64,000 bases of DNA from an uncultured virus (IMG/VR IMGVR_UViG_3300028591_000091) (IMGVR_UViG_3300028591_000091); one strand, 5' to 3'; counted from the stretch's first letter, positions 44,439 to 59,622 are shown. Notes: generated by a model from the letters alone, not told the origin. A program made the numbers and translations.

Positions 44439-45767
44439 ATGAATAAGAAAGTTAAAAAAGTACTTAAGTGGGCCGGTATTGGAATCGGTATCATTGGGAC
44501 TGGAGTTGGGGCTTATGCTCTGATTACCCACCCAGAAGTAAGAGGTGAAATTGTTGACGGAGTAAAGAAAGGTTGCGGCCTGATTACGTCTCCGTTCAAG
44601 GACAAAAATTCTGAAGTAGCATCAGAAGCTCCACGCCGTGAAGGACGGAATAGTGGTGGTTATTATAAGCCTCGTTATAACAACAAGAAAAATTAAAGAA
44701 GAGAAAACATGAAGAAATTTATATTCGGAACAATTGTAGGATCTGTTATTGGAGCTTTGGTACAGGACAAATGGGATGCAAAGAAAGCAGCCACAGAAAA
44801 TTTGGCTAAAGGTTGGGCCTGGACAAAGAAAAAAATTGACAGTCTGAAAGAAGATGTGAAGGAGAACATTGACAGCCTGAAAGAGGATGTTAATGATTAA
44901 AGAAATTCGGAGTTTATTTGATTTGCTCTGAACTTGTTGTTAACTTGCGAAAGGGGTGGTGTAGGACTAAAGCCTATACTGCCTTCCTTTTCTTAACAGC
45001 GATGGAAGAAATATACTTTCCGCTTTAAGAAAGTTTTTAGTGGTCCGGGAGAAGTTAAAAAATAATACTTCCCTCGGACTTTGATTTTAATTATTGAGAG
45101 CTAAAACCCTTAATAGTAAAAGGTTTTCGAAATACAAATTATTAACAAACATTTAAAAACAATTAAAAGTTATGAAAACATGAAAAAGAAAGACAAAAAT
45201 TTGAAATGGTATTTGCTTGGAGAATTTTTAGGCAAAGCATCAGTAATTTGTACAGAAGTACTTATTATCACATCCGTATTGGGAGTGGCTTGTGACCTGA
45301 TATGGGATTTTAAAGAGAGAAAACAGCAAGCAAGAGTTGTAACAAACAAAAACAACAAAAAATGATTACAGTTGGTGATGCGCAAAATGGAAAGCGCAAA
45401 ATTGAAGATCCGGGGAATCCTAGAGTATTTCCCCACACAAAGGCCTACATCAAACACTATTATGGAAAGATAGCAGCAGGCCTTCTCGTTGTAACACTAA
45501 TCGGACAATTAATCCCTTCGATTTTGGATTTCTGCTATGGAGAACCAAAAAGAAACAATGATCGTCGGGATGGAAGACGATAAACTAATAAACCGTTCAT
45601 GCGGTGTATTAATGGGAGTTATTGGAATTTTAGGATGTATATCTGTTTTACCAGTTGTTAAAAAGCCTGTGAGAGATTCTTTACAGCTTAGCATGTCTGG
45701 AATAGGAATAGTATTATCTCTGTTTACAATAATTTCTAAAGCAACAGAACAAAAACAACAAGTTTAG
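44439..45767 (+). CDS. Cluster of five small membrane-anchored proteins (44439..44696, 44709..44900, 45180..45365, 45362..45583, 45537..45767)
   Basis: Each has a Gly-rich hydrophobic segment; promoter motifs at ~44260 and ~45108. Confidence 0.65.
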
Positions 45768-54870: not shown

Positions 54871-55198
54871 CTTTCTATTGTTTTTCTAATATATTTATAT
54901 AATTATTATCCATAGTTATTTATCATAAACTTTCATACTTATATAAGGATTTTCGCCCCTATACACATACAAAATCCTTATTATTGTAATATGAAATATG
55001 GAAAACGAATTATTAGAGAAGCCATAAATAAGTTTCCATACGATCAGGGAGCTACAAGAAAAGACTTATTATTAGCGATAAAAAGAATAACTCCCAGCAA
55101 AGAAGGTATATTTGGTTTATGGATAATAAAAATTCATTATATCCTATCTTACTTTCCTAAATAAAAAGGAAGAATTTATTATTTTAGACGAGTAAAAA

Positions 55199-56556: not shown

Positions 56557-57453
56557 ATGATAACAAAAATAATACTTAATAATTTATATGGAAGAAAAGA
56601 AATTAATGTATCGGTATCACAAAAACTATTTGACTATAAAGCCACATTCTCGGAATTGGAAGAACTTAGAGATATTATTGAAATAATTAAATCTATTCAA
56701 AATGTTTTTAAGAATGAAATTAATATAAAAATTCCATCACAGTATTATTCTTTTTCTGGATCAAAAGAATCCTCTATTGAAATACAAATGATTTGGAACG
56801 AAAAAACTTATACATACCTCTTAGTTTTTGTGGACTCTACTATTTGTATGGAAACTTTATTAGAAGGTAAATCATGGATCTTCTCTAAACTAATAGATAA
56901 TCCAGACTTTGCCTTTAATCCTTCCTATCTTAATGAAAAAGGTAAGAAATTCTATGAAATATATAAAAAAGTTCCTTCTATAAGTCTTCTATTCTGTTTT
57001 AATCCGGGGGAAGAATTATTAAATGAAATCAAAAATATTATAATAATAGATGATTGGTGGAATATTCCCTGCCATCAAGAGTTTGTGAAACGGTTTGAGA
57101 CTACATTTCCAGATCTTTCCTACAATAAATTGATAAATGAGATGATAAATAAGTTTGGTTTTTCATCAGAATATAAAAAATTAAATGAAGATAATAAATC
57201 ACTTTTATTATCTTCTATAAAATCAGATATAACGATAAACATACTTGATTCAGGGTCTGGGTTTGTATGGCTCAGTAGAATATATCCACTAATGGTAGCT
57301 TCTAAAAAAGAAAATTTATTAATGATATCTTCTATTCCTTATGATTTTCATCTTCATCCAATCCTAGGTAAAAAATTAATGACCTGGTTTTTAGAAGATA
57401 ATAATAATTTAATTATAGGAAAATTATCTAATATTTTATTGAAAAATATTTAA
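56557..57453 (+). CDS. Degenerate ABC/AAA_21-type ATPase-like protein
   Basis: MITKI.L.N start, DSGSGF signature-like motif, HLHP.L after an eroded Walker B; no Walker A. Confidence 0.45.
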   Translation: MITKIILNNLYGRKEINVSVSQKLFDYKATFSELEELRDIIEIIKSIQNVFKNEINIKIPSQYYSFSGSKESSIEIQMIWNEKTYTYLLVFVDSTICMETLLEGKSWIFSKLIDNPDFAFNPSYLNEKGKKFYEIYKKVPSISLLFCFNPGEELLNEIKNIIIIDDWWNIPCHQEFVKRFETTFPDLSYNKLINEMINKFGFSSEYKKLNEDNKSLLLSSIKSDITINILDSGSGFVWLSRIYPLMVASKKENLLMISSIPYDFHLHPILGKKLMTWFLEDNNNLIIGKLSNILLKNI

Positions 57454-57609
57454 CCGTCTATTTTCGTCTGAAACCCTTATATATATAGAAAAACTATTGT
57501 GGACAAACCAATAGTCCAGTATGGTTTGTTTTGTTAACTTTGGGGATGGATAGAAAGAGGAGATCCGTCCCCTTTTTTTTATTTTTGGAAGGCTGAAACC
57601 CTTATACGT

Positions 57610-57683
57610 GTGATATATTCTGTTTCATAATAAAATAATGTTTTGGGAGAGTACGGTTTGAGAAAAATAGTACTCTCTTTTTT
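57610..57683 (+). ncRNA. Small RNA unit 2 (variable 5' + conserved hairpin)
   Basis: GAGAGTAC-GGTTTGAGAAAAATA-GTACTCTC-TTTTTT. Confidence 0.6.
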
Positions 57684-57717
57684 CTTCCGTCTATAAAACG
57701 CCGAAAGCCTTATTTAT

Positions 57718-57776
57718 GTTATTAGATTTGAAGGTTATATTGGGAGCGTCGTTTGTGAAAATAGCGCTCCTTTTTT
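57718..57776 (+). ncRNA. Small RNA unit 3
   Basis: GGAGCG-TCGTTTGTGAAAATAG-CGCTCC-TTTTTT. Confidence 0.6.
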
Positions 57777-57799
57777 ATCGCCTCAAATCCTTATATATA

Positions 57800-57873
57800 T
57801 ATATTGTATAGATGAATTATCTTTAATTAATTGTGGAAGAGTACGGTTTGTGAAAATAGTACTCTTTTTTTTT
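57800..57873 (+). ncRNA. Small RNA unit 4
   Basis: AAGAGTAC-GGTTTGTGAAAATA-GTACTCTT-T run. Confidence 0.6.
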
Positions 57874-58153
57874 CTTACGATTATTTTCACCTCAAATCCT
57901 TATATATGTAGAAAAATCTTGATATAGATTTGAACTACAAGATGTAAAAGTAACGCGCAAAAGAGTTTGGTCTCTTATGCCGATCAAGAGTTGAAGTTTC
58001 GCACACAAACTAAAACTTTACTTTAACATCTCACCTTAAAATCGAGGCAAAAAGTGTGTTTAAGGGTTGACCGTCTGAAAAAGGCTGAAACCCTTATATA
58101 TGTAATAATATTTTAGAAACAATTTATTTATTAACAATTCAAATCAAGGACTT

Positions 58154-58393
58154 ATGTATAACGAAGAAAACAACACAGTGAGTGTTAACGAACCTATGAC
58201 GGTTCAAGTAGAGAACAAGGAGTCAATGGCTGAAAAAGTCAAAATGGTTATGACGAACAAGAATGTCTTGGTTGGACTCGGCACAATTATTGTAGCAGGA
58301 GCAGTCTATTACGGATATCGTTTCTGGAAAGCTCGCAAAGCTGCTGCGCCGTGCAACAACCAGAACGACAACAAAGAGAACGTGACTAAATAA
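58154..58393 (+). CDS. Small single-TM protein
   Basis: VLVGLGTIIVAGAVYYGYRFWK; own promoter and terminator (~58410-58455). Confidence 0.75.
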   Translation: MYNEENNTVSVNEPMTVQVENKESMAEKVKMVMTNKNVLVGLGTIIVAGAVYYGYRFWKARKAAAPCNNQNDNKENVTK

Positions 58394-58499
58394 ACACGAC
58401 TCCATAATTCAGGGGATGGCCACCATTAAGGTCGTCCCTTTTATTTTTTTTTTTGAAAAAGAAAGAACTTAGAAATTATACCTAAGCTCTTTTTATTTT

Positions 58500-59311
58500 T
58501 TATGTCCATTCATTATCTAGTCTAAAAAAATTGGACTGACATGGGCCTACCACTTTTCCATCCTCCGTTCTAAAAAGTCGTAAACAATATCTGATTGGGT
58601 CTATATTTCTTGCTCTTATGTTTATTTGAATAGACCCCTTGTTTGTTATTACTATTTTCTTCATGCCTCGTTTATCTTCATCTTCTATAAAATTAACTTC
58701 TATTCTATAAACCCGATAAAAGAAATCAAGGGCCGGTTCTTTTCCATCCCAACCGAGGGCAGCTAATTTTAATATTTTCATTGTTAAGTCCATTCTGTTT
58801 CTTCTTTTAATGTCTTTGTAAAAATAGAAGTACTAGGACCTACCACTTTTCCATCCTTCATTTCAAAAAACTCTAACATTGTTTTCAGAACTTCTTTCAT
58901 AAGAATATATTTAGATCGTTCATCTTGATTCCTTACGCTTATCGATATAAATTTTGATAATTCTACATGATCTAAAATGATATATGATTCAAGAAGATCT
59001 CCATTACCCCCGGATATCATGCATCCTTGATAATGATGACGAGTATATGAGATATTATACTCAAACTCCATCCAATCTATTATCTCTCTAATATCATTTG
59101 GTCCTGTATAACCAAGATCAACCACTTTTAGCCAAATTTCTTCTTCTGATATCATAAAGAAATCAGAATCTGTTTCTTTTATTGATTCTAATATCCAAAA
59201 ATAATTATTAACCTCAGGATCAAAGTATAATGATTTGTCCGAATTAAATAATAGTTCATTCATATCTTCTTTTGATAAACAATAAATTCTTTCCCTAATA
59301 TGATACTTCAT
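58500..59311 (-). CDS. Two paralogues (58500..58793, 58784..59311)
   Basis: Shared DGKVVGP..S.F and terminal EWT. Confidence 0.7.
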
Positions 59312-59622
59312 TTTTTATCCGTTAAAAAGTAGAAATAATGTTGTATACTATCTATTATTAATTCTTTCAAATACCCTCCTACTTCTATTTGAATTGTCTT
59401 TAATATTTCAACATTTTTTGATTCTTTAATCTCTTTTTTAGAAATATACCAATCAAAATTATAGGTTAAAGTTCTTATAATCTGTTTCGTTTTGTAAAGA
59501 GTCTTTCCCTCTAAAGTACCATAAATAATAAATCTATTAATAGATTTGGTACTAATCCCATAAAATATTAAATCGTTAAATTCATCATATTTAACTCTAA
59601 ATTTAAAAAATTCTATTATCAT
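59308..59622 (-). CDS. Hypothetical protein
   Basis: ORF a few nt after CCTTATATTTG. Confidence 0.65.
   Translation of the reverse strand: MIIEFFKFRVKYDEFNDLIFYGISTKSINRFIIYGTLEGKTLYKTKQIIRTLTYNFDWYISKKEIKESKNVEILKTIQIEVGGYLKELIIDSIQHYFYFLTDKK

Follow-up and report, generated by a model that had tools for sequence, protein, structure and literature searches.

Tandem promoter-hairpin units in a rumen phage, tentatively read as host-style small-RNA genes

The DNA studied here, called the window throughout, is a stretch of 64,000 nucleotides (nt) from an uncultured virus (IMGVR_UViG_3300028591_000091). In a gap between two open reading frames (ORFs) it carries an array of short units, four of which (W1 to W4) each have their own promoter, hairpin and U-run. 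Three of these hairpins have a common apex that is conserved at the RNA level over phages, a homologous array is found in a second phage, and the number of copies changes between strains. We tentatively propose that the array is a cluster of small-RNA (sRNA) genes in the style of FopS and GibS with a conserved terminator, a 3'-end hairpin. The proposal is supported by the complete promoter-terminator units, by a tRNA that occupies an equivalent slot in the second phage, by the fact that both the array and the W3 tail are conserved across phages, and by the FopS-like build of the units. The units would accumulate as discrete small RNAs and act in trans on one or more targets.

Anatomy of the array

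The ORF-free gap (57454-58153, 700 nt) lies between the stop codon of a 298-amino-acid (aa) ORF at 57453 and a 79-aa ORF starting at 58154, and carries six copies of a phage promoter motif, all on the plus strand. Its features are listed below with minimum free energy (MFE, in kcal/mol), z-score of the fold against shuffled sequences, and score in bits with a covariance model of the hairpin.

57454..57488, plus strand: promoter P1, a CCGTCT box followed by CGTCTGAAACCCTTATATATATAG, immediately 3' of the stop of the 298-aa ORF
57489..57580, plus strand: unit W1, a 5' hairpin and then a distinct terminator hairpin (57542-57572) with U8; MFE -26.6, z -3.83
57591..57610, plus strand: promoter P2, GGCTGAAACCCTTATACGTG
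57611..57646, plus strand: W2 5' segment, with GTTTCATAATA, loosely like the FopS 5' end
57647..57683, plus strand: W2 hairpin and U-run, GAGAGTAC-GGTTTGAGAAAAATA-GTACTCTC; 30.4 bits
57687..57718, plus strand: promoter P3, CCGTCT ... GCCGAAAGCCTTATTTATG
57718..57741, plus strand: W3 5' segment, GTTATTAGATTTGAAGGTTATATT, resembling the FopS seed; 24 of 27 aligned bases kept in unit M3 of the second phage
57741..57776, plus strand: W3 hairpin and U6, GGGAGCGT-CGTTTGTGAAAATA-GCGCTCC; 38.3 bits
57780..57800, plus strand: promoter P4, GCCTCAAATCCTTATATATAT
57796..57835, plus strand: W4 5' segment; bases 57767-57861 absent from a related bovine-gut strain
57836..57872, plus strand: W4 hairpin and U9, AAGAGTAC-GGTTTGTGAAAATA-GTACTCTT; 44.8 bits; 40/40 nt identical to unit M1 of the second phage
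57890..57908, plus strand: promoter P5, CCTCAAATCCTTATATATG
57909..58075, plus strand: unit W5, structured, with no terminator; MFE -41.5, z -2.62
58071..58102, plus strand: promoter P6, CCGTCT ... GGCTGAAACCCTTATATATG, driving the 79-aa ORF
58154..58393, plus strand: 79-aa ORF with one hydrophobic stretch, the first protein gene 3' of the array

The first-pass annotation had described four consecutive units, each with its own promoter, hairpin and U-run, and this is borne out by the sequence, the motif sites and the folds. It had not counted the fifth unit (57909-58075), which lacks a terminator, nor the sixth promoter in front of the 79-aa ORF. The 3' hairpins of W1-W4 are each followed directly by a run of 6-9 U, the arrangement of an intrinsic terminator, with MFE values of -26.6, -17.3, -15.4 and -13.7 kcal/mol and z-scores against shuffles of -3.83, -2.90, -2.75 and -1.90. 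A simple terminator scan (uninterrupted stem, loop of 3-8) listed none of the W2-W4 hairpins, because of their internal G.A mismatch and the loop rule of the scan, and listed unit 1 on the minus strand only.

W2-W4 have in common the apex GGUUUG(U/A)GAAAAUAG, carried, as annotated earlier, on differing stems (GAGAGUAC/GUACUCUC, GGGAGCGU/GCGCUCC and AAGAGUAC/GUACUCUU). The exact sequence GTTTGTGAAAATAG is present at 57751 and 57846, and the apex of unit 2 reads GTTTGAGAAAAATAG, with one additional A. W1 lacks this apex, giving no match to the covariance model.

The promoter motif RAAAYCCTTATA, allowing at most one mismatch, was found at 17 sites in the window against 6.66 ± 2.81 expected, and none of 100 shuffles reached 17. 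A variant pattern gave 15 window sites, six of them on the plus strand of the gap (57471, 57596, 57704, 57785, 57894 and 58088), and a logo of 18 sites from the window and its relatives reads C(C)GTCT ... aAGCCTGAAAYCCTTATAtATGtA. Away from the array, it lies 26-85 nt upstream of co-oriented ORF starts, and it is also present in three of four distant relatives of the window (L115, L116 and L118). Behind P5, the data of one metatranscriptome run contain a contig (depth 97.9) starting at 57923/57924, i.e. 16-20 nt 3' of the promoter, with its loose end (GCTCTTCCGATC) fused to Illumina adaptor letters, as compared with a contig depth of 20.6 for the gene upstream. Since this abundant contig starts so shortly behind it, P5 is very likely active as a promoter. 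W5 lies within the same contig, which continues via P6 into the 79-aa ORF, and W5 therefore looks like a long leader of that ORF rather than a separate small RNA.

Some further observations concern the promoters. The P6 region (58065-58110, about 40-46 nt with the CCGTCT box) has counterparts with 0-4 differences in several other contigs from these RNA and DNA runs, part of them at high depth; the promoter is therefore common to other loci or to related phages in those samples. Two copies of the motif stand back to back on opposite strands at 54942-54982, between divergent genes for a DHH phosphoesterase and a metallophosphoesterase. The (TA)n run in P1 (57482-57488) exhibits a 2-nt difference in the related strain (placed at 57478), and P4 has a longer TA run at 57793-57802. 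Both runs lie within promoters and could be sites of slippage.

A homologous array in a second phage and a unit lost in a related strain

A homologous array was found in L359, a metagenome contig of 92 kb and 31% G+C, in which one strand carries a series of seven successive copies of the promoter motif. Five of the seven are followed by a segment of 25-45 nt, a hairpin (45.6, 35.1, 33.2, 30.4 and 25.9 bits) and a U-run, one by a tRNA with a U-run, and the last by a gene. The units M2-M4 of this contig align to W2-W4 with 68.7% identity over 249 nt, while the rest of the 2.4 kb compared from L359 has no match to the window and the ORFs on either side show no relation. The W3 and M3 tails are identical at 24/27 bases, and the stems of all three pairs (W2-W4/M2-M4) exhibit compensatory differences. 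The hairpin and U-run of M1 are those of W4 (40/40 nt identical) behind an unrelated tail. A metagenome search with GAGTACGGTTTGWGAAAA gave 19 loci, of which 18 were chance matches with no hairpin and only L359 was related. The tRNA of L359 begins 15 nt behind the promoter motif, and transcription there must therefore start no later than 15 nt behind it. This tRNA (745-838) has a 25-nt insertion in the D-loop region.

A related strain from bovine gut, with about 93-96% identity in the flanking ORFs, differs in copy number. One of its contigs joins 57766 to 57862, skipping 95 bases, with the joint inside the repeated hairpins; unit 4 is therefore missing from this strain. Elsewhere in the array the strain has at most 7 differences in 57350-57766 and 3 in 57862-58096, as against 40 in 56634-57349 and 106 in 58076-59578, so that the non-coding array is better kept than its coding flanks.

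These data bear on the main rival explanation, namely that hairpin, U-run and promoter together form an insulating and recombining junction module, with slots that are gene remnants or empty and give rise to no functional RNA. Small composite terminator/promoter sequences of this kind, PeSLs, mediate insertions and deletions in T4-like phages (PMC4122927). As with the PeSLs of that account, a repeated terminator hairpin in the array is directly followed by a promoter, and the strain indel ends within the repeats. Four junctions in the window, and at least five in L359, have a hairpin with the next promoter within 10-25 nt; exactly one unit is absent from the related strain, with the joint (57766/57862) within repeated hairpins; breaks in the DNA contigs of the probable source sample fall at 57743-57772 and 57847-57866; and another contig from the same samples has a W2-like hairpin followed by the promoter-like TTTCCTTATTAATATG. 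The lack of hits in the target searches among G006 susC starts and window starts (below) also fits such cassettes. On the other hand, only 3 of at least 15 promoter sites in the window are paired with the hairpin, all of them in the array, so that the pair is not a general junction module of the phage. Furthermore, units W2, W3 and W4 keep their order in a phage whose ORFs on either side are unrelated, 24 of the 27 bases of the W3/M3 slot agree, divergence in the related strain is lower in the array than in the adjoining ORFs, and the apex is kept over unrelated phages with other promoters. One slot of L359 holds a tRNA, and the slots thus hold small RNA genes. PeSL cassettes as described in PMC4122927 flank ORFs, whereas the array slots are 25-45 nt long with no ORF conserved between the phages; the conserved order and slot sequence, the phage group and the promoter type also differ from the PeSL case. 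The first-pass annotation had itself named promoter-terminator scars as what could overturn its interpretation: the composite repeat and the strain indel do fit PeSL-type cassettes, but the conserved W3/M3 slot does not. We regard this explanation as unlikely, yet as one to be taken seriously.

That the units encode micro-peptides is hardly credible. ATG frames of 7 codons (W2), 4 codons (W4) and 31 codons (W3, running through the terminator) do exist, but they are not kept: the 31 codons of W3 compare with 4 in M3, and the 4 codons of W4 with about 38 in M1, running through the hairpin. No small ORF is conserved between the W and M units.

The hairpin is a recurrent RNA motif in phages

The 15-mer GGTTTGTGAAAATAG was found in at least 112 IMG/VR loci, and in at least 120 loci of a comparison set with one genome per species from about 186,000 bacterial and archaeal species. 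All counts of contexts and hairpins in this section are among the matches listed. By a strict in-register criterion (at least 5 pairs) the 15-mer is enclosed by a stem in 36/62 distinct IMG/VR contexts and in 4/119 genome contexts (Fisher p 7e-17), and by a looser one (at least 5 flanking pairs) in 80/115 viral occurrences and 8/120 genome loci. Pairing around the bacterial and archaeal 15-mers is at chance level. Among the few such genome matches, a Bacilli metagenome-assembled-genome (MAG) contig (L122) has a perfect 9-bp stem around the 15-mer and may be a prophage copy outside Bacteroidota.

The stems around the viral 15-mers are of many unrelated sequences. In an alignment of 30 hairpin copies from unrelated contexts, 14 columns are invariant and 93% of cells pair, as compared with 67% in shuffles; the rows had been pre-selected for pairing, and the contrast between viral and genome contexts is the real test. 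The fixed parts are a closing Y-G pair (C-G in 15 copies, U-G in 15), a G opposite A, an invariant G-U pair, three further pairs and a GNRA loop (GUGA; GAGA in W2). Two variants from lower-scoring copies in other phage genomes, GGTTCGTGAGAATAG and GGTCTGTGAAGATAG, carry double changes that preserve the apical helix. The given strand is the one read as RNA, because the conserved U-G and G-U pairs would be C-A on the other strand, and a DNA-hairpin promoter of the N4 kind was ruled out on the same grounds. Mimicry of a tRNA anticodon arm (loop UUGUGAA, like tRNA-His) was likewise dismissed, since the register of the stem is wrong for it and the loop of unit 2 is GAGA instead. With varying stems, compensatory changes in the apical helix and a conserved G-U pair, the sequences indicate that the hairpin is a phage-specific motif under selection as RNA, in agreement with the first-pass annotation.

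A covariance model built from the copies of other phages found only three sites in the 64 kb (44.8, 38.3 and 30.4 bits; next best 12.4), and 2-5 copies, often clustered, in each of five other phage records. The hairpin matches no family in Rfam 15, and no description of it was found in the literature searched, where a paper on the theta ribozyme does not mention it; the motif thus appears undescribed so far.

In other phages the hairpin often lies beside tRNAs. Rfam found an adjoining tRNA at 8/20 hairpin loci, and ARAGORN (introns allowed) a same-strand tRNA 2-14 nt downstream of 10/36 distinct hairpins. A same-strand tRNA was present in the locus of 17/36 hairpins, as compared with 3/26 stemless matches of the 15-mer. 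At least four T within 8 nt follow 19/36 hairpins, and further copies lie behind a stop codon or 25-40 nt upstream of an ATG. In L025 (426-550) a hatchet ribozyme (Rfam, 101.8 bits) starts 11 nt 3' of the hairpin, which itself lies behind a 69-aa ORF. The hairpin would thus mostly be located at or near an RNA 3' end, which termination, RNase P acting at the following tRNA or a ribozyme would produce. An upstream TT[TC]CAT box is in modest excess (8/36 hairpins, 8/119 genome contexts).

Several of the tRNAs directly behind the hairpin are unusually long (L006 258-388, L017, L022 and L044 523-637), with 104-155 nt by ARAGORN with introns allowed and two at 131 and 115 nt by Rfam; their insertions are below the size of a group I intron. 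A weak match to a type III hammerhead (26.6 bits) lies upstream of the hairpin-tRNA pair in L041.

The wide occurrence of the hairpin next to tRNAs shows that it has a function in its own right, independent of "guides". The first-pass annotation had seen a modular system of variable tails on a fixed handle. The identical hairpins of M1 and W4 behind unrelated tails agree with this, but elsewhere the hairpin mostly stands before tRNAs or behind genes. A partner protein for the hairpin, also postulated there, may exist. In the strongest version of this idea the hairpin would be the protein-binding 3' handle of a phage-wide sRNA class, with 3' ends made interchangeably by a U-run terminator, by RNase P at an abutting tRNA or by a self-cleaving ribozyme, and variable 5' tails would direct the complex to RNAs of the host or of rival phages. 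We consider this a long shot. If true, it would constitute a programmable RNA-silencing module native to Bacteroidota phages.

The array was described from the outset as distinct from CRISPR, and this stands: only the apex is shared while the stems differ, each unit has its own promoter, the 15-mer occurs twice in 0/120 genome loci listed, and no Cas family was found among 20 window ORFs scanned. Racr RNAs are solitary, CRISPR-repeat-like anti-CRISPR RNAs of phages that are individually promoted and act via a protein-binding hairpin. The array resembles them as a set of individually promoted phage units, each predicted to yield a small hairpin RNA; unlike Racr, it has no cas context in sight, and the absence of a second 15-mer from all 120 bacterial loci listed means that it is no exact CRISPR repeat there.

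The same contexts bear on two further roles. First, the hairpins could be conditional terminators (attenuators), the apex binding a phage or host factor that gates read-through from P1-P4 into W5 and the 79-aa ORF, and likewise into tRNAs and genes elsewhere. In line with this, some hairpins in other phages stand between a probable promoter region and a tRNA, whose start follows at 2-14 nt in 10/36 contexts, or belong to 5' leaders with an ATG 25-40 nt downstream, and one RNA contig spans the W1 and W2 terminators. The boxB hairpin of lambda binds N. Like lambda nut/boxB, the motif is a short hairpin, conserved at the apex and topped by a GNRA-like loop, which in the array sits on an A-U helix; it is located 3' of promoters and before untranslated or early genes. 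The array hairpin is, however, itself followed by a U-run, and no boxA and no N-like protein were seen, no dedicated test having been made for them. Moreover, P5 and P6 lie downstream of all hairpins and the abundant RNA starts behind P5, so that the 79-aa ORF needs no read-through; the full stems with 6-9 U look constitutive, and no candidate factor was identified. Attenuation is therefore, in our judgement, quite unlikely.

Second, the hairpin could be the active part of a decoy or sponge, titrating a host RNA-binding protein or a defence nuclease or serving phage tRNA handling, with the tails as mere spacers. The apex is by far the best-kept part (14 invariant columns in 30 copies), several copies are clustered per genome, and M1 and W4 carry the same hairpin on different tails. 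The neighbouring tRNA clusters and, once, the hatchet ribozyme 11 nt behind would both release the hairpin with a defined 3' end. A spacer role is at odds with the conserved W3/M3 tail, and no partner is known. Bacterial genomes do not carry the 15-mer as a hairpin, pairing there being at chance level, and the hairpin is thus no mimic of a common host RNA. We rate a decoy as improbable, on a par with attenuation.

The small stable RNAs of T4 known as species 1 and 2 provide a precedent for non-tRNA small RNA genes among tRNA genes, as seen in the L359 array and in the tRNA clusters of other phages. They are cut from a long precursor, whereas the array units are individually promoted, and there is no sequence relation.

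Resemblance to FopS and GibS

The sRNA biology of Bacteroidota is barely charted, and FopS, GibS and RbpB are its first worked examples. To our knowledge, Bacteroidota lack Hfq and ProQ. The FopS family of B. thetaiotaomicron has 14 sRNA members, in which a free 5' seed pairs beside the start codon of susC-type mRNAs and blocks translation; the RRM protein RbpB binds FopS, as seen by crosslinking-immunoprecipitation (CLIP) and electrophoretic mobility shift assay (EMSA), and the FopS authors recorded a copy in one phage (PMC11697453). GibS is a Bacteroides sRNA (RF04182; PMC7366714).

In a sensitive Rfam scan of 721 nt, W3 gave a full-length match to FopS (RF04319; 30.3 bits, E 0.018) and weaker matches to GibS and BTnc231, and W1, W2 and W4 gave no FopS match. 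W3 holds TATTAGATTT-G-AAGGTTA, i.e. the 17-nt FopS core with one inserted G, and lacks GTGTTTTTCAT. Genuine FopS genes are present in G006, a genome titled Prevotella sp. 10(H), in seven copies (60.7-81.1 bits), three of them in tandem; they read GTGTTTTTCATGGTATTAGATTTAAGGTTAAC..., where W3 reads ...TATGTTATTAGATTTGAAGGTTAT... The tandem genes (L246 1501-2160, G006:C3:58819-59478) score about 80 bits each, are spaced by 264 and 323 nt, and each have a TAnnTTTG-type promoter. The FopS core seed is present in at least 103 IMG/VR loci, which among the matches listed are mostly canonical FopS genes with GNRA-type terminator loops. Three crAss-sized hairpin carriers (L012, L013 and L110) have FopS-like words upstream of the hairpin.

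In build the array recalls FopS and GibS: each unit would be a short gene standing alone, with an AU-rich 5' stretch that is left free and a terminator hairpin whose loop is of the GUGA type. As in FopS, copies are multiple and sometimes tandem (three in a row in G006), a rho-independent hairpin directly follows the seed region (as seen in the folds of the W units and in the alignment of W3 to the hairpin of the model), and unit 3 has ATG-TATTAGATTT(G)AAGGTTA. Unlike FopS, the array scores below the family cut-off with one unit only matching, uses a phage promoter instead of the host TAnnTTTG type, has tails that are not complementary to the susC start regions of G006, and carries a longer fixed hairpin apex of 14-15 nt that is not in FopS.

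Each unit of the proposed sRNA cluster would be a tiny non-coding gene with its own promoter (C(C)GTCT ... GSCTGAAAYCCTTATATATG) and, in W1-W4, an intrinsic terminator. W2-W4 would be paralogues that arose by tandem duplication, with a copy number that varies between strains. The expected products are RNAs of about 45-75 nt with a free AU-rich 5' tail and a 3' module made up of the conserved hairpin (closing Y-G, G.A, G-U, three Watson-Crick pairs, GNRA loop) and the U-run. Since the units have the build of GibS and FopS, sRNAs whose 5' seed pairs with start regions, base-pairing by the 5' tail is the most likely mode of action, and it would be best supported for W3. The hairpin would end transcription, shield the 3' end and perhaps dock a protein.

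Target searches and RNA data

G006 served as a FopS-bearing proxy genome for the real host. As a positive control, the 5' part of G006 FopS was paired with 30 of its own susC start regions and gave a mean of -17.8 kcal/mol, as compared with -14.5 ± 0.6 for shuffles (z -5.5), through GUGUUUUUCAU against AUGAAAAAC, plus AUUUAAGGUUAAC.

Several results count against the sRNA proposal. W3, at 30.3 bits, falls short of the Rfam gathering cut-off for FopS (56 bits), its E-value scaled by us to the whole window is about 1.6, and L359 has no FopS match at E up to 5. Against the 30 susC starts of the proxy host the tails of W1-W4 gave z-scores of -0.71, -0.77, -0.83 and +1.56, and those of M1-M6 gave -1.80 to +1.20. 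Against the 95 start regions of the window, 9, 37 and 16 of 40 shuffles were equal to or better than W2, W3 and W4, respectively, and perfect complements elsewhere in the window reach no more than 12 nt. RNA contig cover of 57458-57744 has a depth of 3.2 and is a single piece across two terminators, and 57745-57922 has no RNA contig cover; contigs, however, can show neither ends nor levels and are no proof that an RNA is absent. A start about 20 nt behind CCTTATA, as suggested by the RNA end at 57924, would turn the FopS-like block of W3 into promoter DNA; an earlier start is favoured, because the L359 tRNA begins 15 nt behind the motif. Finally, a hairpin that in other phages mostly adjoins tRNAs need not mark sRNA genes.

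W1 was borderline against the 95 window start regions, 2/40 shuffles being as good. Its best duplex, of -30.5 kcal/mol with the start of the ORF at 45170-45457, is long, ragged and unconvincing, and was not retained.

The first-pass annotation had read the array as antisense RNAs silencing host mRNAs. Of this, the resemblance of unit 3 to FopS, a validated antisense sRNA family, is in support, whereas an enrichment of targets did not materialize: complementarity does not exceed shuffled controls for the 95 window starts or the 30 susC starts of the proxy genome. The target nulls weaken the antisense reading and do not remove it, because G006 is a proxy for the true host. Discrete transcripts had also been expected, and the RNA contigs, which show neither ends nor levels, give no sign of abundant ones. 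Libraries of this kind usually lose short RNAs. The earlier observation of the array is thus confirmed, and its interpretation partly supported.

Genome setting

The window is AT-rich (32% G+C) and phage-like, and the public runs containing it are recorded as sheep and bovine gut metagenomes. Its three tRNAs, at 39.5-39.9 kb, are the sole Rfam matches at gathering level. Its genes include those for an NAD synthase, an RlaP-type nucleotidyltransferase, an RNA-ligase-like phosphoesterase and a DHH phosphoesterase, and many ORFs have no family. The 79-aa ORF has no Pfam and no PHROG match, and the 298-aa ORF on the other flank of the array has one weak IMG/VR relative.

A blastn search of INPHARED found no close relative of the window among deposited phages. 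A 717-aa helicase-like protein of the window has relatives with 40-51% identity in four contigs, L115, L116 and L118 among them, and the contigs found in this way exhibit neither the array nor synteny with the window. A tblastn search with the same protein against phage records named it a DEAD-like helicase and gave nothing more. Two contigs of about 179 kb with several hairpins were considered as relatives of the window and found to be unrelated. A tRNA with anticodon CTA (amber suppressor; "Pyl" by ARAGORN) is located at L239 2397-2474 (G001:C1:52500-57000). It belongs to the tRNA cluster of a phage contig of 179 kb on which hairpin copies are present as well, and hints at TAG recoding in that phage.

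Implications

The apex of the hairpin is common to dozens of otherwise unrelated phage contigs. That the hairpin recurs just ahead of tRNAs, and in one case ahead of a hatchet ribozyme, points to a shared mechanism by which RNA 3' ends are made or marked. A partner protein, should there be one, could be sought with the hairpin as bait. As for the array itself, it may, though we hold this view tentatively, represent phage copies of host-style sRNA genes of a kind already known from FopS. Gut and rumen Bacteroidota phages would then carry arrays of host-style sRNA genes under phage promoters and, if the tails act by pairing, would rewire host translation through RNAs whose duplication and exchange cost little.

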